DNA of 64,000 nucleotides from Candidatus Omnitrophota bacterium. Lineage in GTDB: Bacteria > Omnitrophota > Gorgyraeia > Gygaellales > Profunditerraquicolaceae. The translations under genes were made by a program, and so were the position numbers. The notes beneath the pieces were generated by a model, which saw nothing but the letters and a program-made list of their open reading frames with translations, ran no database searches and had not been told where the DNA came from. Below are positions 3,253 to 57,215 of this stretch, piece after piece. The stretch lies in NCBI GenBank assembly GCA_028717885.1, contig JAQUMX010000006.1:206-64205 (forward strand), written 5' to 3'. How positions within the stretch are numbered: the first letter of the stretch is position 1; the number at the start of each line of letters is the position of its first letter.

Positions 3253-5822
3253 CCGCCGATGTATTAAGAGAAAAATTCCTGCAATTTTTCAAATCCAAAA
3301 AGCATAAAATCGTAGAAAGCGATTCACTGGTGCCTAAGGACGACCCGACTGTGCTCTTTACGCCTGCCGGGATGAACCAGTTTAAAAAGCAATTCTTAGG
3401 GCAAATTACGGGTTTTACCCGCGCTGCTACTTCGCAGCGCTGCCTACGCACGGATGACCTGGATAAAGTGGGAAAAACAACCGGCCACCACACATTCTTT
3501 GAAATGCTGGGGAATTTTTCTTTTGGCGATTATTTTAAGAAAGAGGCAATTACCTGGGCCTGGGAATTTTTAACCGGGGAATTGAAGATTAGCCCGGAAA
3601 AATTATGGGTTTCGGTTTATAAAGATGACGATGAGGCTTACGGAATCTGGAAGGATGAAGTTGGGGTTGCGCAGGAGAGGATCGTCAAATTAGGGGATAA
3701 GGATAATTTCTGGCCGGCAGAGGCGAAAGAAAAAGGCCCGAATGGGCCATGTGGGCCGTGCTCGGAAATTTTTTATGATTTCGGCAAGGATGTCGGTTGT
3801 AGAGAGAAAATTTGCGATCCATCTTGTAGCTGCGGCAGGTTTGTGGAGATCTGGAACCTGGTTTTTACCCAGTTTAACCGCAAAGAAGGCGGCCAATTAG
3901 AACCGCTGCCAAAGAAAAATATCGATACCGGTATGGGTTTGGAAAGGCTGGCTGCGGTAATGCAAGGGGCAAAAAACAATTTCGAGACGGAATTATTTCA
4001 GCCGATCATCAAAGCGATAGAGCAAGAGGCAAGCAGAAGTATTCAAGCGGCTAATGCTTACGCAGTGGCTGATCATTTACGCGCGATTTGTTTTTCAATA
4101 TATGATGGTGTAATACCGTCTAATGAAGAGCGGGGATATGTAATCAGAAAACTGATTCGTAAGAGTAGCCTACATATAAAAAGTATGGGGATTAAGAAAT
4201 TATTTCTTTATAAATTAGTTCCAATTTTGGCTGAAATTATGCAGAAGCCATATCCAGAATTAAAAGAGCGGCAGGAAAACATTGCGCAGATTATTTTAGA
4301 AGAAGAAAGAGCTTTTCTTGCGAACCTAGATAATAGTGAGCCCTTATTTGAATCTAAATTTCAGAATTTAAAAACCAATTCGGATCCGGATGCAGCAGGA
4401 AAAATTGCCTTTCAACTCTATGATACTTACGGGATTCCTGCAGAGCTTACTTTTGATTGGTTAAGTAAGCATAAAATCGAAGTCTCCAAAGATGCTTTTG
4501 AACGCGCAATGGACGAACAGAAGCAGCGCTCAAAAGCAGGCAGCGCCATGAAAGGCGATGTGTTCAGTTTAAAAGGCTTAAAGCTCGACGTAAAAGAAAC
4601 TAAATTTTTGGGCTACAAAACAACTCTATCTAAGGCAAAAATCTTAAAGATTTTTCAGGACGGTAAAGAAGTAAAAAAAATCAAGCAGGGGGATAGTGCG
4701 GAAATCGTGCTGGACCAGACTCCGTTTTATGCCGAATCCGGCGGCCAGGTTGCAGACATCGGAGAATTGGTAAAAGGAAAGAATATTTTTCAGGTCCTGG
4801 ACACGCAGAAAAACGGAAAAGTAACCATTCATCTGGGAAAAGTAACCAAAGGCGGGTTTAAAAAAGCCGATTCCTTAAACGCCCAAGTAGACAGAGAGCG
4901 CAGGCTCTCGATTGCCAGGAACCATACCGCCACACACCTTTTACAGGCGGCATTGCGTAAAGTTTTAGGGCCACACGTGCAGCAGCAGGGTTCTTTGGTA
5001 GCTGCGGAAAAACTGCGTTTTGATTTCACGCATTTTAAGGGCTTAAATCAGGAAGAGCTGGAGCGGATCGAAGAAGAAGTATACCAGTCTGTAATCGAAA
5101 ACTATTCCCTAAGTACGAAGATTTTAACCCTTGCTCAAGCAAAGAAGACAGGGGCTTTGGCATTTTTTGCGGAAAAATATGAAGGTAAAGTACGCGTAGT
5201 GTCTGTAGGGGAGGTTTCGCGAGAGCTTTGCGGCGGGACTCACCTTGCTGCCACGGGAAATATCGGGTTATTTAAGATCCTGCATGAAGGCTCAGTTGCC
5301 AGCGGCGTGCGCAGGATCGAGGCAGTTACCGGAAAATACGCTTATCAGCTCATAAAGGAAGAAAAAGAAAAACAGCAGGAGGAATTAGAAAAAGCATTTG
5401 GCCACCAGAGAGAGTTGGAAAAACAATTAGGCTCGCAAAAACTCGGGCAGGCAAAAAATTCCCTGAATGATTTGCTGGAGAAAATCGAGAATATTAATGG
5501 CTTAAAAGTAATCGCCCAGGTTTTGCCGGATTTAGATATGGGATTGCTGCGAAAAAGTGTGGATTTAATCAAGGAAAAATCGGATAATACTATCATTGCT
5601 TTAGGCTCTATTCAAAGCGCAAAAGCCTTATTAGTGGTGGCGGTAACTGCCGACCTTTGCGCTAAGGGGATCGATGCTACGAAAATAATCGTGGAAGCGG
5701 CAAAGCCAATCGGCGGAAGCGGCGGAGGGAGAAAAGATTTTGCCCAGGCAGGCGGCACGCAGCCGGAAAATTTCGAACAGGCTTTCGCAATAATTAAAAA
5801 AATAGCCAGCGAGGTAAAATGA
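3249..5822 (+). CDS. alaS: Alanine--tRNA ligase
   Basis: Class II AlaRS N-terminus (FTPAGMNQFK), editing-domain HTATHLL...CGGTH, C-terminal GGSGGGR; ATGA overlap with the recX stop (track start 3213 rejected). Confidence 0.96.
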   Translation: MTADVLREKFLQFFKSKKHKIVESDSLVPKDDPTVLFTPAGMNQFKKQFLGQITGFTRAATSQRCLRTDDLDKVGKTTGHHTFFEMLGNFSFGDYFKKEAITWAWEFLTGELKISPEKLWVSVYKDDDEAYGIWKDEVGVAQERIVKLGDKDNFWPAEAKEKGPNGPCGPCSEIFYDFGKDVGCREKICDPSCSCGRFVEIWNLVFTQFNRKEGGQLEPLPKKNIDTGMGLERLAAVMQGAKNNFETELFQPIIKAIEQEASRSIQAANAYAVADHLRAICFSIYDGVIPSNEERGYVIRKLIRKSSLHIKSMGIKKLFLYKLVPILAEIMQKPYPELKERQENIAQIILEEERAFLANLDNSEPLFESKFQNLKTNSDPDAAGKIAFQLYDTYGIPAELTFDWLSKHKIEVSKDAFERAMDEQKQRSKAGSAMKGDVFSLKGLKLDVKETKFLGYKTTLSKAKILKIFQDGKEVKKIKQGDSAEIVLDQTPFYAESGGQVADIGELVKGKNIFQVLDTQKNGKVTIHLGKVTKGGFKKADSLNAQVDRERRLSIARNHTATHLLQAALRKVLGPHVQQQGSLVAAEKLRFDFTHFKGLNQEELERIEEEVYQSVIENYSLSTKILTLAQAKKTGALAFFAEKYEGKVRVVSVGEVSRELCGGTHLAATGNIGLFKILHEGSVASGVRRIEAVTGKYAYQLIKEEKEKQQEELEKAFGHQRELEKQLGSQKLGQAKNSLNDLLEKIENINGLKVIAQVLPDLDMGLLRKSVDLIKEKSDNTIIALGSIQSAKALLVVAVTADLCAKGIDATKIIVEAAKPIGGSGGGRKDFAQAGGTQPENFEQAFAIIKKIASEVK

Positions 5823-12046: not shown

Positions 12047-12102
12047 GACACCCGGCCTTATCTGTTAGGCCGGTGTTCATTCGTATGAAAGGAGCAACAA
12101 AA
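12047..12102 (+). repeat. Family-3 cassette: GC hairpin plus conserved SD leader (copy 1, before rpsP)
   Basis: ACACCCGGCCT (12048-12058) / AGGCCGGTGT (12067-12076) then TCATTCGTATGAAAGGAG; near-identical cassette at 48455-48513. Confidence 0.7.
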
Positions 12103-20729: not shown

Positions 20730-20757
20730 TTGACAAACTCCAATTTTAGTATATACT
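20730..20757 (+). promoter_or_regulatory. Strong sigma70-type promoter with A-rich UP-like tract
   Basis: TTGACA (20730-20735), 16-nt spacer, TATACT (20752-20757); preceded by AAAAAATATAAAAAAAATA. Confidence 0.6.
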
Positions 20758-20977: not shown

Positions 20978-21127
20978 ATGCGTGAAACTATAACTTTAGA
21001 ATGTACGGTTTGCAAGAATAGAAATTACACCTGCACCAAGAATAAGAAATTGCATCAGGAGAGGCTGGAAATTTCTAAGTTCTGCCGTTTTTGCCACAAA
21101 CATACTGCGCATAAAGAAATTAAATAG
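20978..21127 (+). CDS. rpmG: 50S ribosomal protein L33 (Cys4 zinc form)
   Basis: 49-aa [27 protein letters not shown]...[15 protein letters not shown], below the track length cut-off; classic position before tRNA-Trp/secE. Confidence 0.9.
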
Positions 21128-21196
21128 GAGCGTCGGTTAATGGCAAACCAACGGTCTCCAAAACCGTGACTGCAGGTTCGAGCCCTGCCGCTCCTG
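21126..21196 (+). tRNA. tRNA-Trp (anticodon CCA)
   Basis: Hand-folded 71-nt cloverleaf: acceptor AGGAGCG/CGCTCCT, D GGTT/AACC, anticodon stem ACGGT/ACCGT with loop CTCCAAA, T stem GCAGG/CCTGC with TTCGAGC; first 2 nt are the last 2 nt of the rpmG TAG. Confidence 0.9.
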
Positions 21197-21225
21197 TAAA
21201 ACCGGAAGCGGCAAAGAAAAGAGAA

Positions 21226-21285
21226 TGACCCATTCGCAAAATTCGCTCAGGGTCATCCCGAGCGAATCAAAAGGACCGAGGGATG
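21226..21285 (+). repeat. Family-2 double-hairpin cassette (copy 1, ends in the secE start codon)
   Basis: TGACCC (21226-21231)/GGGTCA (21250-21255) and CATCCC (21254-21259)/GGGATG (21280-21285); ATG 21283 is the secE start. Confidence 0.65.
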
Positions 21286-21546
21286 AATTTTTTTACGAGT
21301 AATTTAAAAGCTATAATTTTAAGCGTCGTAGTAATCGGCATCGTTCTTTTGGTAGTTAAGAATTACAAGAAGATAAAGCAATTTTTAACCGAAGTGAAAC
21401 AGGAGCTGGAGAAGGTATCCTGGTCAACCCGGGAGGAATTAATCGGTTCAACTGTAGTAGTGATCACCATCACCGCAATCACTGCAGTATTCATCGGAAT
21501 AATCGATCTTTTTCTCTCCAAAATCTTGAGCGTAATGTTTAAGTGA
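21283..21546 (+). CDS. secE: Preprotein translocase subunit SecE (with an extra N-terminal TM)
   Basis: C-terminal half E.KKV.WP(S)..E pattern (ELEKVSWSTREEL) plus TM; position before nusG. Confidence 0.85.
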   Translation: MNFFTSNLKAIILSVVVIGIVLLVVKNYKKIKQFLTEVKQELEKVSWSTREELIGSTVVVITITAITAVFIGIIDLFLSKILSVMFK

Positions 21547-21692
21547 GGACACAAGTTATGGTGCATTATATTAAAAATAATATCAGCGACATAACTTGTA
21601 AGTCCGAACTTATCCTTGCACCAATTGGCGCAAGGATTAATTCGCATAGCAACTTATGTTCACTTACGTTCCATAAGTTGCGTGCTCATTAA
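21543..21692 (+). repeat. Family-1 structured intercistronic element (copy A, secE|nusG)
   Basis: GTGAGGACA...AAGTCCGAACTTATCC core; hairpins 21547-21605, 21612-21637, 21649-21681; embedded 44-codon frame 21558-21692. Confidence 0.75.
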
Positions 21693-22645: not shown

Positions 22646-23322
22646 AGAAACCAAGCAAAAGATACCAGGAATCAATAAAGTTAGTTGACAAAGATAAGGC
22701 GTTTCAGCTTAAAGAAGCGGTTTCTATTTTAAAGACAATGAAGCCGACGAAATTCGATGAGTCTGTAGATTTGCATTTAAGTTTGAATGTAGACCCCAAA
22801 AAATCAGAACAGATGGTGCGCGGTACGGTAGTACTGCCGCACGGAACCGGCAAAAAGGTTCGGGTTGCGGTCTTCTGTAAAGGCGAGCATGAAAAACAGG
22901 CTAAGGATGCCCAGGCAGATTTCGTGGGCGGCCTGGAATTAATCGAAAAAGTAGGCGCAGGTTTCCTGGATTTTGACTGTGCAATTGCTACTCCGGAAAT
23001 GATGAAAGATTTAAGCAAGCTAGGTAAGGTCTTAGGGCCGCGCGGCCTTATGCCAAGCCCCAAGACTGGAACAGTTACCAATGACATTGTCAGGGCAATC
23101 GAAGACGTGCGCAAAGGAAAAGTAGAATTCCGCGTAGATAAGCAGGGCGGAATGCATTTAAGCGTAGGAAAAATTTCTTTCTCCGAGGACAAGATATTGG
23201 AAAATGCCTCAAGGGTAATCGAGGCAATTAACGAAGCCAAGCCCGCATCAGTAAAAGGAAAATTCGTGCGCAGCCTCTTTATTTCTACCACGATGAACCC
23301 GGGATTAAGGATTTCAACATGA
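22642..23322 (+). CDS. rplA: 50S ribosomal protein L1
   Basis: FDESVDL...L.VDP(K/R)K.(D/E)Q.VRG...LPHGTGK pattern. Confidence 0.96.
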
Positions 23323-23377
23323 CCCTTAAACAAACTGCTCGTGGGAATGGTGCGCGAGCAAAGCGAGTCGAACCATG
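23320..23377 (+). repeat. Family-2 cassette (copy 2, rplA stop to rplJ start)
   Basis: TGACCC...ATGGTGCGCGAGCAAAGCGAGTCGAACCATG; TGA is the rplA stop, terminal ATG is the rplJ start; 30/33 nt identical to 56265-56297. Confidence 0.7.
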
Positions 23378-23914
23378 AAGAAAATCGGACTTATAGTTAA
23401 GGAAGTTTCGGAAGCCCGTTTAAAGAACAGCCTGAAAGGCTCGAACAGTTTTTTTGTGGTGAAATATTCCGGTTTATCCAGCCCCGATATTACGGCATTG
23501 CGCCTTTCTTTAAAGGGTTCGCAAGCCGACTTTTTTGTGGTAAAGAATGCCGTAGCCAGGCGCGCTTTGAAAAATGCCGGGATGGAAAATGCGGTAAAGT
23601 ATATTGATGGCCCATGCGGGATAATCTTTGCTAAAGATGAGCCGGTAGATGTTTCCAAGGTTCTATATAATTTCCTTAAAGATCATGAAAAGTTCCAACT
23701 GGGCGGCGGATTTTTAAAGGACCAGATTCTGGAAAAGAAGGATATCGAAGCATTGGCAAAACTGCCTTCCAAACAGGCGTTGCGCCAGCAATTAGTCGTA
23801 GCTTTAAATGCCCCGATTTCCAAATTTGTCCGCGCGTTGAATGGTACCTTAAGCAAATTCGTAATTTGCTTAGATCAAATAAAAGAAAAAAAATCAAAAG
23901 AGGGGGGTAAGTAA
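23375..23914 (+). CDS. rplJ: 50S ribosomal protein L10
   Basis: 179-aa ORF in the L10 position with typical L10 pattern (LR..L...G..F.VVKN.(L/V)A.RA). Confidence 0.93.
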
Positions 23915-35993: not shown

Positions 35994-36293
35994 ATGCAAA
36001 AGATTCGCATCAAACTAAAAGCCTATGACCATCGCCTGCTTGATCAGGCGGTAGCCGAGATCGTGGAAACTGTCCGGCGTACCGGAGCGAAAATTTCCGG
36101 GCCCGTACCGTTGCCCACGAAGCACGAGATTTATACGGTGCTGCGTTCGCCGGTAATCGATAAAAAATCCCGCGAGCAGTTCGAATTGGCGACACACAAG
36201 AGGCTGATTGATATTTTTGAACCTACATCCAAGACGATCGATTCCTTAAGGAAATTAAACCTTCCGGCAGGCGTGGATGTGGAAATTAAATGA
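35994..36293 (+). CDS. rpsJ: 30S ribosomal protein S10
   Basis: [16 protein letters not shown] start; ATG 35994 one nt after the tuf stop (track start 35985 rejected). Confidence 0.95.
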
Positions 36294-36401
36294 GGACATA
36301 ATTTATGGCGCGTAAGCGACATAAATTATAAGTCCGAATTTATCCCGCACAGCTTATATTAAAAGCTGTTGAGTGCGGGAATAACTTGCAAGGAAACTCA
36401 C
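36291..36401 (+). repeat. Family-1 structured intercistronic element (copy B, rpsJ|rplC)
   Basis: ATGAGGACATAATTTATGGCGCGTAAGCGACATAAATTATAAGTCCGAATTTATCCCG; hairpin 36294-36335 with GTAA tetraloop; second hairpin 36344-36379; mini-ORF 36305-36331. Confidence 0.75.
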
Positions 36402-42895: not shown

Positions 42896-43441
42896 ATGTC
42901 TTTAATTGGTAAAAAACCTATTGCAATACCGAGTGGAGTAAAAGTACAGGCAGAAAACGGCCAGCTTATGGTAGAAGGGCCGAAGGGAAAAATTGCGCGC
43001 CCGTTTTCTCACCGTTTAAATTTGGAATTAAAAGAGAATCAGGTTTTTGTGAAGCGTGTAGGCGATTCCAAGCTGGATAAATCCTTGCACGGCCTCTTCC
43101 GCGCTTTGATTGCCAATATGGTTAAGGGTGTAACTGACGGCTACAGCAAAGAATTGGAAATTATAGGCACCGGTTTTAAAGCTCAGATACAGGGGAATAA
43201 ATTGGTCTTGACCGTGGGTTTTTCGCATCCGGTTAATTTCACGATCCCCGAAGGCATTAAGATCGAAGCGCCTAAAGCAACTCACCTGGTGATTAGGGGC
43301 ATTGATAAAGAAAAGGTCGGAGAGATCGCTGCGGAGATCCGCGCGGTTTATCCTCCCGAACCATATAAAGGTAAAGGTATCCGCTATGTCGGCGAATACG
43401 TGAAGAAAAAGATCGGAAAGGCACAAGCAACTACTAAATAA
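42896..43441 (+). CDS. rplF: 50S ribosomal protein L6
   Basis: S.IGK.PI.IP.GV start and EPYKGKGIRY C-terminal block. Confidence 0.96.
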   Translation: MSLIGKKPIAIPSGVKVQAENGQLMVEGPKGKIARPFSHRLNLELKENQVFVKRVGDSKLDKSLHGLFRALIANMVKGVTDGYSKELEIIGTGFKAQIQGNKLVLTVGFSHPVNFTIPEGIKIEAPKATHLVIRGIDKEKVGEIAAEIRAVYPPEPYKGKGIRYVGEYVKKKIGKAQATTK

Positions 43442-43553
43442 GTGAGGACATAATTTATGGAGCGTAAGCGACATAAATTATAAGTCCGAACTTATCCCGA
43501 GTCCAAAGAGATTTTATAGTTGTAAACGAGGGATCTAAAAAGGTCATAGGAAT
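43442..43553 (+). repeat. Family-1 structured intercistronic element (copy C, rplF|rplR)
   Basis: GTGAGGACATAATTTATGGAGCGTAAGCGACATAAATTATAAGTCCGAACTTATCCCG; hairpin 43446-43487 with GTAA tetraloop; mini-ORF 43457-43483. Confidence 0.75.
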
Positions 43554-48029: not shown

Positions 48030-48455
48030 ATGCCAAGAATTTTAGGTGTGGACATCCCGAAGGAAAAAAGAATTGAGATCGCCCTGTGCTATCTTTTCGG
48101 CGTGGGCAGGTCTTTAGCAAACAACATCCTTAAAGAAGCGCAGATTTCTCCCGATAAGCGGGCAAAGGATTTAAGCGAAGAAGAGATTTTGCGCATTACC
48201 AACATCATTCAGAAAGGTTACCGCGTAGAAGGAGATTTACGCCGTGACATTTCGCAGAATATCAAGAGATTAGTCGATATCGGTTCCTGGAGAGGTTCGC
48301 GCCACAAAAAAGGCCTTCCTTGCAGAGGGCAGCGTACGCGTACAAATTCCAGGACACGTAAGGGCCCGCGTAAAGGCGGTATGGCGGTAATCAAGAAAGC
48401 GGATACCGCACCTAAAAAGTCAGCGCCTGCAGCAGCAAAGCCGGCCGGTAAATAA
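48030..48455 (+). CDS. rpsM: 30S ribosomal protein S13 (short Lys/Ala/Pro-rich C-terminal tail)
   Basis: M(P/A)RI.GVD(I)P..KR(I)EIAL.Y(L)(F)G(V)G start. Confidence 0.96.
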
Positions 48456-48513
48456 CACGCGGCCTTAATGGATAGGCCGGTGTGCATTTGTATGCAAGGA
48501 GGAATTAAGTTTT
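48455..48513 (+). repeat. Family-3 cassette: GC hairpin plus conserved SD leader (copy 2, before rpsK)
   Basis: ACACGCGGCCT (48455-48465) / AGGCCGGTGTG (48474-48484) then CATTTGTATGCAAGGAGG; matches 12047-12102. Confidence 0.7.
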
Positions 48514-55160: not shown

Positions 55161-56240
55161 ATGCATAAAATAACTTTAATCCCCGGTGACGGGATCGGGC
55201 CGGAAGTAGCAGATGCAGCCAGAAGGTGTATCGACGCTACCGGAGTAAAAATCGAATGGGAAGAAGCAATTGCCGGGCAATTGGCTTTGGAAAAACAAGG
55301 AAGCCTTTTACCGGATAGCGTGATTGCTTCGATCAAAAAGAATAAAGTCGCGTTAAAGGGGCCGATTGTTACGCCTATCGGCACGGGTTTTCGCTCGGTG
55401 AATGTTGCTATTCGCCATGCTTTGGATTTATTTGCCTGCGTGCGCCCGGCAAAATCATACGCCGGTGTGCGAAGCAATTACCGCGATATTGATTTGGTGA
55501 TTGTGCGTGAGAACAGCGAAGATTTATACGCAGGGATTGAGTTTGAGGAAGGTAAGTCGGAAACGATAAATCTGATTGAGCAAATAGAAAAATACAGCAA
55601 AAAGAAAATTCGCCCGGATTCCGGGATTTCAATTAAGCCGATTTCCAAGACCGCTTCCGAGAGGATCGTGCGTTTTGCTTTTGAATATGCCTTAAAAAAT
55701 AACCGGAAAAAAGTTACTGCCATTCAAAAAGCAAATATCATGAAATTTACCGATGGCCTTTTCCTGAAAGTTGCCCGCGAAGTGGCAAAAGAATATGAAG
55801 GAAAGGTAGTTTTTGAAGAAGGCCTGGTAGATAATATGTCCATGCAGCTGGTGCAGAAGCCGCACAATTACGATGTGTTGGTATTGCCTAACCTTTACGG
55901 AGATATTCTTTCCGATCTTTGTGCCGGATTGATCGGAGGCTTAGGTATTGCTCCGGGCGCAAATATCGGAGAAGAGGCAGCGGTTTTTGAAGCGGTACAT
56001 GGATCTGCTCCCAAATATACCGGCCAGAATAAAGTTAATCCTACGGCAATGATTCTTTCCGGAGTGTTGATGCTGCGCCATATCAAAGAAGAAAAAGCCG
56101 CAGACAAATTAGAAGCGGCGGTAAAGGCAGTGTTAGCAGAAGGTAAATCCGTTACTTACGATTTAAAGCCTGACCGTAACGATCCTACCAGTGTAGGCAC
56201 ACGGGAAATGGCTGACGCAATCATTGCGAAACTAACATGA
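55161..56240 (+). CDS. Isocitrate/homoisocitrate dehydrogenase-like beta-decarboxylating dehydrogenase
   Basis: [15 protein letters not shown](I)R..LDL(F)A.VRP, (V)(I)VREN(S)EDLY(A)[10 protein letters not shown](L)..GL(I)GGLG blocks. Confidence 0.85.
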
Positions 56241-56297
56241 CCTTCCGCAAAACTTTGTTTAGGGTCATGGTGCGCGAGTGAAACGAGTCGAACCATG
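56238..56297 (+). repeat. Family-2 cassette (copy 3, ICDH-like stop to mdh start)
   Basis: TGACCT...AGGGTCATGGTGCGCGAGTGAAACGAGTCGAACCATG; CATGGT (56266-56271)/ACCATG (56292-56297). Confidence 0.7.
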
Positions 56298-57215
56298 AAA
56301 ATTTCTATTATCGGTGCCGGAAATGTCGGCGGAACTGCAGCTATGCGCCTTGCCCAGGAGGGTATAGGCGATATTTTTTTAATTGATATCGCTAAGGGCT
56401 TAGCACAGGGAAAAGCTTTTGATTTGGACGACGCTCGCCCGATTCTAAAACATCATTACCATATTACAGGCACCGAGGATTTCGCAGCAGTAAAAGATTC
56501 GGAGATTGTGGTGGTTACAGCCGGCTTGGCAAGAAAACCCGGAATGACCCGCGAGGACCTTTTAAATAAAAACGCCGCGATCTTAAAAAGTATCTGCCTG
56601 GATTTAAAAAAACTCTCTCCCAAGGCAATCCTTATTATTGTTACTAATCCGCTGGATATTATGACTTACCTGGCATTGAAAGTAACCGGCTTTAAAGCGA
56701 ACCGGGTAATTGGCATGGGAGTCAGCCTTGACGCTGCAAGGTTTGCAAATCTCATTAGCCAGGAATTAAAGGTTTCCAGTGCTGATGTAGAGGCAATGGT
56801 AATCGGCGGCCACGGAGAAGGGATGTTGCCTTTAGCGCGTTTTAGCAATATTAAAGGTGTGGCGTTGGATGAATTTATCGGCGAAGATAAAATTAATGAG
56901 TTAGTGCAGCGTACTTTTGACCGCGGAAAAGAAATTGTTTCATTATTAGGCAGCGGCAGCGCTTTTTATGCTCCTTCTGCGGCAATTGCGCAAATGGTAA
57001 AAATCATTGCCAAGGATGAGAAGCGTACTATCGGCGCCTGCGCCTACTTAAACGGCGAATATGGATTAGAAGACCTCTGTATCGGAGTACCGGTGCGTTT
57101 AGGCAATAATGGCATTGAGGAAATTATTAAATTAGATTTGAATAAACAGGAAACCGAAGCCCTTCTTAAAGCAGCGGATCAAATTAAGGAACAATATAAA
57201 AACTTAACCATCTAA
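56295..57215 (+). CDS. mdh: Malate dehydrogenase (LDH-like family)
   Basis: IIGAGNVGG Rossmann motif; substrate-loop AGLARKPGMTRED has Arg at the position that is Gln in lactate dehydrogenases; catalytic (I)GGHG. Confidence 0.9.
   Translation: MKISIIGAGNVGGTAAMRLAQEGIGDIFLIDIAKGLAQGKAFDLDDARPILKHHYHITGTEDFAAVKDSEIVVVTAGLARKPGMTREDLLNKNAAILKSICLDLKKLSPKAILIIVTNPLDIMTYLALKVTGFKANRVIGMGVSLDAARFANLISQELKVSSADVEAMVIGGHGEGMLPLARFSNIKGVALDEFIGEDKINELVQRTFDRGKEIVSLLGSGSAFYAPSAAIAQMVKIIAKDEKRTIGACAYLNGEYGLEDLCIGVPVRLGNNGIEEIIKLDLNKQETEALLKAADQIKEQYKNLTI

Follow-up and report, generated by a model that had tools for sequence, protein, structure and literature searches.

In a stretch of 64,000 nucleotides from a Candidatus Omnitrophota genome (hereafter the window), the sequence directly upstream of secE can be drawn as two hairpins, the second of which contains the secE start codon. 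This raises the question whether the sequence is a structured RNA acting on secE or an element of another origin. The 60 nt at 21226-21285 are identical to the sequence quoted in a first-pass annotation of this DNA and lie downstream of tRNA-Trp. The local gene order is a promoter-like site (20730-20757), tRNA-Thr, rpmG, tRNA-Trp, the sequence in question (copy C), secE, a 146-nt repeat of another family, nusG, rplK, rplA, a 52-nt spacer and rplJ, and the same architecture is present in the one other assembly with an identical secE locus (GCA_028706935.1). The features of the locus are the following:

21125-21197, plus strand: tRNA-Trp, located next upstream; the left TGA does not terminate an ORF
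21226-21286, plus strand: copy C of the repeat, 61 bases that begin with the left TGA and end with the right ATGA, delimited by sequence, covariance model and nhmmer
21225-21228, plus strand: left ATGA, opening a 25-codon out-of-frame mini-ORF
21226-21231, plus strand: hairpin 1, 5' arm TGACCC, pairing with 21250-21255
21250-21255, plus strand: hairpin 1, 3' arm GGGTCA, the last two bases of which are common to hairpin 2
21254-21259, plus strand: hairpin 2, 5' arm CATCCC, of the arm type CCC/GGG (15 metagenome copies among the matches listed)
21280-21285, plus strand: hairpin 2, 3' arm GGGATG, containing the secE ATG
21241-21248, plus strand: alternative central hairpin, 5' arm ATTCGCTC, part of the predicted minimum-energy fold
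21260-21267, plus strand: alternative central hairpin, 3' arm GAGCGAAT, including the conserved GAGCGA loop motif
21271-21275, plus strand: AAGGA, a degenerate Shine-Dalgarno-like (SD-like) motif 7 nt before the secE ATG, where the family consensus has AAAGGAG
21225-21302, plus strand: mini-ORF of 25 codons (MTHSQNSLRVIPSESKGPRDEFFYE) from the left ATG, ending 17 nt past the secE ATG in another frame
21283-21546, plus strand: secE, 87 aa, starting with the right-hand ATG of the element; Pfam SecE is assigned to an identical protein

The first-pass annotation placed the two stems and the secE ATG correctly, and TGACCC/GGGTCA as well as CATCCC/GGGATG are perfect over 6 bp. The start codon at 21283 is backed by alignments over residues 1-87 to the SecE proteins of three relatives (L001, L003, L018), all of which align from residue 1, and does not have to be reassigned. 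As C21254 and A21255 are common to both stems, the two hairpins cannot both form at full length simultaneously. The alternative complements ATTCGC (21232-21237) and GCGAAT (21262-21267) that had been pointed out are present, and a second ATTCGC at 21241-21246 extends to a perfect pairing of 8 bp between ATTCGCTC and GAGCGAAT (21241-21248 with 21260-21267). This central hairpin is the predicted minimum-energy fold of copy C with -19.7 kcal/mol as RNA, compared to about -12 kcal/mol for the two-hairpin plan. Of that plan the existence of both stems therefore stands, but the stems overlap by two bases and do not represent the predicted ground state. It had been overlooked that an ATGA direct repeat lies on both sides, the TGA of the element (21226-21228) being part of the ATGA at 21225-21228 and ATGA recurring at 21283-21286, so that copy C is bracketed by it; that the left ATGA corresponds to the ancestral start of secE; and that hairpins 1 and 2 are reverse complements of each other.

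A cis-regulatory RNA, i.e., a translational operator, a leader or a thermosensor that sequesters the start codon of secE, rplJ and mdh in hairpin 2, would account for an ATG in the 3' arm of a stem with covarying arms and for a position just 5' of essential genes, as known for ribosomal-protein leaders. It would also agree with the fold energy of copy C, which is modestly lower than that of shuffled controls (z = -2.1), although another fold is predicted as the ground state of this copy. What decides on this explanation is the distribution of the element, within the window, in metagenomes and in related genomes.

Two further copies are present in the window:

23320-23378, plus strand: copy A, between rplA (stop TGA at 23320-23322) and rplJ (ATG at 23375); covariance model 29 bits, E = 1e-6
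23319-23378, plus strand: mini-ORF of copy A, 19 codons, from the left ATGA, with its stop exactly in the right ATGA
56238-56298, plus strand: copy B, between an isocitrate/isopropylmalate dehydrogenase gene (stop TGA at 56238-56240) and a malate/lactate dehydrogenase gene (ATG at 56295); 46.8 bits, E = 1e-11

The covariance model was built on 32 copies that include copy C, which scores 69 bits (nhmmer E = 1.7e-14), but not copies A and B. Both methods group copy C with the rplA/rplJ and the icd/mdh copies, as the claim of a third family member had it. The E-values of the window copies range from 1e-6 to 1e-18 and nothing beyond copies A, B and C was found by the model in the 64 kb. That these sequences resemble each other by chance, as low-complexity palindromes that form no family, can be practically dismissed: the motif GAGCGAA alone is indeed not over-represented in the window (10 found, 11.8 expected), but these E-values, the lack of other matches in 64 kb, the identity of copies B and C at 38 of 62 ungapped positions and more than 100 near-identical copies elsewhere stand against it.

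In metagenome contigs at least 120 copies were found with a scan pattern that fixed only hairpin 1, the CAT and part of loop 2, and the left half of copy C is nearly a base-for-base match to their consensus. The GC content of the host contigs is bimodal among the matches listed, with groups at 0.34-0.50 and 0.60-0.72 (34-72% overall) and with the CCC arm occurring mostly in the high-GC group, and because there are two such groups the hosts belong to several unrelated lineages. A scan of the window at the Rfam gathering thresholds and of eight loci with canonical copies at E <= 1 yielded only tRNAs and one chance match to a Thr leader. BLAST searches with two consensus variants against the plasmids of PLSDB and the phages of INPHARED gave no match, and the only pattern match in a viral contig (L202) was rejected as a chance hit in coding DNA that lacks the right arm. 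In the literature, the sequence strings of the repeat and the motif of its junk peptide retrieved only unrelated primers, and no description of the family was found in work on MITEs or repeats at stop and start codons or on repeats in Omnitrophota.

The replacement of CATGGT/ACCATG by CATCCC/GGGATG had been interpreted as covariation. This was analyzed with 108 unique copies that were selected by their 5' half only and in which the 3' end was located by the generic pattern GA-NSS-ATGA, found in 83 of them. Among the matches listed, the 3' arm is complementary to the copy's own 5' arm in 81 of these 83, with four arm types (numbers likewise among the matches listed):

arm type CCT / AGG: 43 copies
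arm type GGT / ACC: 19 copies
arm type CCC / GGG: 15 copies
arm type GCT / AGC: 4 copies

Compensated arms outside this pattern were found by the covariance model:

L088: TGATCC/GGATCA with TCATAC/GTATGA
L055, 672-721: TAATCC/GGATTA with TAACCC/GGGTTA
L127: CGACCC/GGGTCG with TCGCCC/GGGCGA

At the loop borders GAG[CT]G...[TC][CT]GA, perfect flanking complements of 5 bp were observed 77 times, compared to 3 expected by chance, and comprise at least six recurrent stem sequences. The change in copy C is thus a true compensatory one and it is family-wide. As the repeat is dispersed and its arm types are subfamilies, there are only a few independent compensatory events; the covariation separates these subfamilies and does not track secE regulation.

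Three further candidates for structural evidence were set aside. The pair count on one alignment (A2) is no evidence, since its units had been preselected for a perfect 3' arm, and the unbiased table of 83 copies was used instead. The central hairpin pairs in 83% of the alignment cells but does not covary and is disrupted in copies with GGT or CCC arms, while an outer TTCGAC/GTCGAA pairing is broken without compensation in GCCGAA variants.

The orthologous sites were compared in the 80 best NusG relatives, all of them Omnitrophota MAGs with 59-85% identity. The element is absent from the rplA/rplJ and the tRNA-Trp/secE sites in 79/80 to 80/80 of these loci, and the empty sites consist either of a plain ATGA stop/start overlap (L002, L003, L008, L017, L036 and others) or of a short purine-rich leader followed by ATGAAT. 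At rplA/rplJ most relatives have the ATGA overlap or a spacer of a few bases (L008: ACTCATGAAAAAG; L002 and L003: ATATGAA), where the window reads AACATGA[CCC...CCATGA]AGAAA. Between tRNA-Trp and secE the relatives have the purine-rich leader and ATGAAT, in L027 for example GGGGAAAAGAGATGAATATA directly after tRNA-Trp, where the window reads AAAAGAGAATGA[CCC...GGGATGA]ATTTT. Deletion of the bracketed 56-58 nt gives back the ancestral arrangement at both sites, and the empty sites reconstructed for the window copies read ...AACATGAAGAAA... and ...AGAGAATGAATTTT.... Given the empty orthologous sites, the copies of the window are insertions specific to this lineage, and they went into an (A)TGA that was already present. 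The left ATGA at 21225-21228 is the ancestral start context of secE, a purine-rich leader followed by ATGA-AT.

The only other genome of the set that carries copies is L055, with one copy (4496-4568, stem CATCCT/AGGATG) in the secE/nusG junction, which in most relatives is the ATGA overlap TTTAAATGAAAAA. Copies A, B and C and this L055 copy are flanked by (A)TGA on both sides, and in the relatives ATGA is present only once at each of rplA/rplJ, secE/nusG and the secE start, as expected for a target-site duplication with single-copy empty sites. A 3-nt target duplication and an insertion beside a TGA by an element that itself ends in TGA would leave the same flanks and cannot be told apart. In either case the TGA is part of the element or of its target and is not placed as a stop codon, in line with the earlier view that its use as a stop is secondary.

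Taken together with the empty site in 79 of 80 related genomes, which contradicts the implied reading of a conserved structured RNA at the secE locus, the cis-regulatory explanation is highly improbable. The same element occurs 5' of unrelated genes in contigs of 34-72% GC (among the matches listed), has no Rfam match even at E <= 1, and consists of a hairpin 1 that is the reverse complement of hairpin 2, which recognition at the RNA level would not need. The hallmarks of leader RNAs, such as orthologous conservation and a curated model in case of the L10 leader, were not found for it. The sequence upstream of secE is instead one copy of a very widespread palindromic selfish repeat of roughly 45-60 bases and not a secE-specific regulator. 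We consider it about 80% probable that 21226-21286 is a short non-coding, non-autonomous, REPIN/MITE-like palindromic repeat that was inserted into a pre-existing (A)TGA in this Omnitrophota lineage.

Separately from this family, many relatives (L011, L015, L020, L021, L033, L035, L043, L046, L048, L050) carry a structured insert of 100-450 nt after tRNA-Trp, and these inserts end in a second copy of the tRNA 3' end, e.g., GTCCTGCCGCTCCTG. They resemble an element that integrated into the 3' end of the tRNA, or a small RNA linked to the tRNA.

The consensus of the repeat, TGACCC(A)TTCGAC-N3-GCTCAGGGTCATCCTGAGCGA(ctgaaagg)AGTCGAAGGATGA, is composed of two inverted modules of about 24-30 nt, TGA-NNN / TTCGAC...GCTCA / N'N'N'-TCA and then TCA-MMM / TGAGCGA...GTCGAA / M'M'M'-TGA. 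Hairpin 1 (TGACCC / ATTCGACTTCGCTCA / GGGTCA) and the minimal hairpin 2 (CATCC / TGAGCGAAGTCGAA / GGATG) are twins related by reverse complementation, with loop 1, ATTCGACTTCGCTCA, being the reverse complement of the minimal loop 2, TGAGCGAAGTCGAAT. In this way the element contains the same module twice in inverted orientation and has a REPIN-like layout. Because its halves are inverted repeats, the predicted minimum-energy fold of the consensus is the long central hairpin, a single one with z = -5.5. The ends form terminal inverted repeats, the left TGACCC(A)TTCGAC matching the reverse complement of the right end, TCATCCTTCGAC, and the same copies are matched by the covariance model on their minus strand as well.

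The central nine bases, GGGTCATCC or a variant of it, are the reverse complement of right end, TGA and left end read together (GGA+TGA+CCC), so that both TGAs compete for the same central TCA. This rule relating ends and centre is kept in variants in which the triplet has changed:

CGA ends, centre TCG: L127; also nested in L087
TCG ends, centre CGA: nested in L138
CGC ends, centre GCG: L161
TTAA ends, centre TTAA: L055, 672-721

In longer copies extra modules are nested in loop 2, and nested insertions sit in the TGA or CGA of another copy's loop; in L110 a whole element lies within the TGA of the loop of another copy, GAGCGAC|TGA|AAGGAG. Cargo between the two ends was found in none of the 120 loci listed. 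The variant at 672-721 of L055, a 48-nt unit with TTAA on both sides and in the centre, lies in frame within a 275-codon ORF without Pfam match, to which it adds VNPSITLRINPERSRR.

The placement of the copies relative to genes is exact to the nucleotide. The right ATG starts a real gene in all three window copies, and the left TGA is the stop codon of the upstream gene in copies A and B. Among the matches listed, an ORF of 60 codons or more starts at the right ATG in 61 of 82 copies (control frames: 20 of 164), one ends at the left TGA in 42 of 82 (control frames: 24 of 164) and the base preceding the TGA is an A in 67 of 108. This enrichment at gene boundaries could partly be due to survival and not to targeting. 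In 49 of 91 copies (among the matches listed) one of the SD-like motifs AGGAG, GGAG, GAGG or AGGA is found 4-18 nt ahead of the right ATG, while copies A and B have only GAG. No promoter-like site was found inside copies C or A in a consensus scan, the nearest strong one being the site at 20730-20757 upstream of tRNA-Thr. A terminator was considered and rejected, as neither hairpin is followed by a T-run and the element contains no terminator-like site. As regards the window as a whole, TGA is used as stop codon by only 12 of 65 long ORFs, and six ATGA stop/start overlaps (5819, 10224, 22642, 41041, 46303, 54659) are still unoccupied and represent potential target sites. The apparently ORF-poor window end (61.9-64 kb) is one long ORF that runs off the end.

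Some REP and ERIC elements have been proposed to stabilise or process polycistronic mRNA. The repeat could accordingly be a domesticated module between cistrons that is useful to the host, in which a relay mini-ORF and its own SD preserve or tune translational coupling, or which acts in mRNA stabilisation or processing. In copy A the 19-codon mini-ORF starts in the ATGA of the rplA stop and stops in the ATGA of the rplJ start, resulting in two successive ATGA overlaps, and in copy B a mini-ORF of 14 codons from the left ATG ends 13 nt before the mdh ATG. In the 53 metagenome copies with a left ATGA (among the matches listed), the mini-ORF stops cluster at -16 (16 copies), +1 (15 copies) and -23 to -25 (6 copies) relative to the right ATG. 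Together with the SD-like motif in about half of the copies and with the report that REPs located at most 15 nt from a stop codon affect translation (PMC12306157), this speaks for such a module. On the other side, the ends of the mini-ORFs follow from TGAs in conserved motifs and the mini-ORF runs on into the gene in 10 of the 53 copies (again among the matches listed), so that selection on a relay is not demonstrated; moreover, the relatives do without the element and the six intact ATGA overlaps of the same window are unoccupied. A translational relay via the mini-ORF is possible, but a host-useful module as explanation of the family is unlikely.

For a mobile repeat of the REPIN/MITE-like kind, the sequences suggest how insertion could be tolerated. 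Insertion into an ATGA overlap, or into the ATG-A of a start codon, would leave TGA on the left and thereby keep the upstream stop, and on the right it would restore an ATG-A that is in the original frame, in many cases accompanied by AAGGAG in loop 2. Copies would persist within essential operons since both neighbouring genes stay intact (TGA on the left, ATG-A in frame on the right, with an SD or none). Translation of the downstream gene would then proceed via the SD-like motif of the element and/or via a short relay ORF from the left ATG to a stop at or near the right ATG. The element may move as folded single-stranded DNA with an enzyme supplied in trans, and its central triplet may help to define the target in a manner resembling the guide-to-target pairing of IS608; in this mobility model a circle junction would read GGATGACCC / GGGATGACCC.

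A motif scan of all loci for a transposase gave only two RAYT-like ORFs (L099, L196), which are flanked by different repeats, and no TnpA/Y1 (HUH) gene was found next to copies in the loci scanned. These RAYT-like (Y1 transposase) genes are bracketed by short repeats of their own (L099: 91-128 and 830-866; L196: 13310-13345 and 13915-13960). As a tentative and rather speculative extension, the repeat might represent an undescribed class of ultra-small mobile element of 45-60 nt in stop/start junctions. Its central guide triplet would pair with both ends and select TGA, or CGA, TCG and TTAA in the variants. Movement would probably involve single-stranded DNA folded into a dumbbell, on which an HUH-type or similar enzyme acts in trans, and the element would carry a stop/SD/start cassette and sometimes a relay mini-ORF.

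Among known systems, REPIN/BIME elements and very small MITEs come closest to the way in which the element works. REPINs, i.e., REP doublets (BIMEs), are thought to be mobilised by RAYT tyrosine transposases. As in REPINs, which are defined as inverted doublets of short palindromic units (PMC3116915), such units form an inverted doublet that is predicted for the consensus to fold into one long hairpin, with loop 1 and the minimal loop 2 being reverse complements, and the repeat is non-coding, present in many copies at gene ends (3 in 64 kb, at least 120 in metagenomes), found as singlet modules as well, and free of cargo. The tags GTAG or CGTC that define the two REP super-families (PMC3733652) are, as GTAG/CTAC and CGTC/GACG, absent from the consensus and from copies A, B and C. 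Compared to the REPINs of that study, in which the two conserved 16-mers alone start 71 bp apart (PMC3116915), the element is much shorter; it is positioned to the nucleotide at TGA/ATGA together with a start codon, and the RAYT-like genes in the loci are themselves flanked by other repeats. With MITEs it shares terminal inverted repeats, a short sequence on both sides with single-copy empty sites, the non-coding nature and nested insertions. However, 45-60 nt is at or below the usual size range of MITEs, a parent IS with the same ends was not seen (none of the 120 loci listed has ends separated by cargo), and the repeated flank co-varies with the centre of the element, unlike an ordinary target duplication.

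Hairpins at both ends and a short flank or target complementary to an internal sequence are also found in the IS200/IS605 'peel and paste' elements and in PATEs. The target of IS608, a tetranucleotide, is recognised through base pairing with a guide inside the element and is open to reprogramming (PMC5934647, PMC3201880). In the repeat, flank and centre triplets are complementary and co-vary (TGA/TCA, CGA/TCG, TCG/CGA, TTAA/TTAA), a pattern that would equally arise if these triplets were just the outermost pairs of the stems. In contrast to IS200/IS605 elements, its two modules are inverted, a single central sequence serves both ends, the pairing is ordinary Watson-Crick pairing as part of hairpin stems, and TnpA was not found at the loci.

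Neisseria REP2 and the Borrelia IR are dispersed repeats just upstream of genes that contain a ribosome-binding site, an ATG and two internal stem-loops (PMC3184786). Similarly, the gene that follows the element starts with the element's ATG (in 3 of 3 window copies and in 61 of 82 of the metagenome copies listed), and an SD-like motif is present in 49 of 91. REP2 has a promoter, whereas none is predicted within this element, which unlike REP2 and IR also supplies or keeps the upstream stop codon, has no visible sequence relation to them and resides in very different host genomes. Rickettsia palindromic elements (RPEs) lie in frame inside ORFs (PMC10969869), as does the 48-nt variant of L055, but they are about 150 bp long and mostly intragenic, whereas this family is mostly found at gene boundaries. 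Repeats that bring a ribosome-binding site together with an ATG (Neisseria REP2, Borrelia IR) and in-frame palindromic elements (RPEs) are thus already known. The very small size, the nucleotide-exact use of the ATGA junction, the content of stop, SD and start, and the complementarity between ends and centre that changes with the flank look new compared to the literature searched.

Other repeats are present in the window. Copies of a second family ('family 1') are located at 21544-21692, 36291-36368 and 43439-43553; it also begins at a stop codon (TGAGGACA...) and its hairpin loop GAGCGTAAGCGA resembles the loop GAGCGAAGTCGA of the family upstream of secE. Its copy at 21544-21692 occupies the junction between secE and nusG, where most relatives simply have the overlap TTTAAATGAAAAA, and sequences related to family 1 are a module upstream of secE in L055 and an 88-nt insert at rplA/rplJ in L074. 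Both families probably belong to the same superfamily of modular hairpin elements. Furthermore, two intergenic elements (12047-12100 and 48455-48513) are 82% identical and contain a GC-rich hairpin ACACCCGGCC...GGCCGGTGT, followed by a second, small one that closely precedes the Shine-Dalgarno sequence of the following gene and in which the arms differ in a compensatory way (TTCAT-TCGT-ATGAA versus TGCAT-TTGT-ATGCA).

If the repeat is read correctly, gene callers and searches for RNA motifs would have to expect inserts of 45-60 nt at ATGA junctions, and unrecognised inserts would yield false 'conserved structured leaders', spurious small ORFs and junk peptides from translation of the repeat. 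The rplKAJL and secE-nusG operons would provide a natural experiment, in which a junction is stretched by 56-58 structured nt without loss of expression, and this stretched junction would bear on termination-reinitiation and 70S-scanning models of translational coupling. The co-variation of flank and centre would hint at a base-pairing target rule in a very small element, similar to the reprogrammable targeting of IS608. If the repeat indeed constitutes an undescribed class, its spread over hosts of 34-72% GC would place it among the more widely distributed unnamed bacterial repeats, and its portable cassette would make insertion into essential operons harmless.
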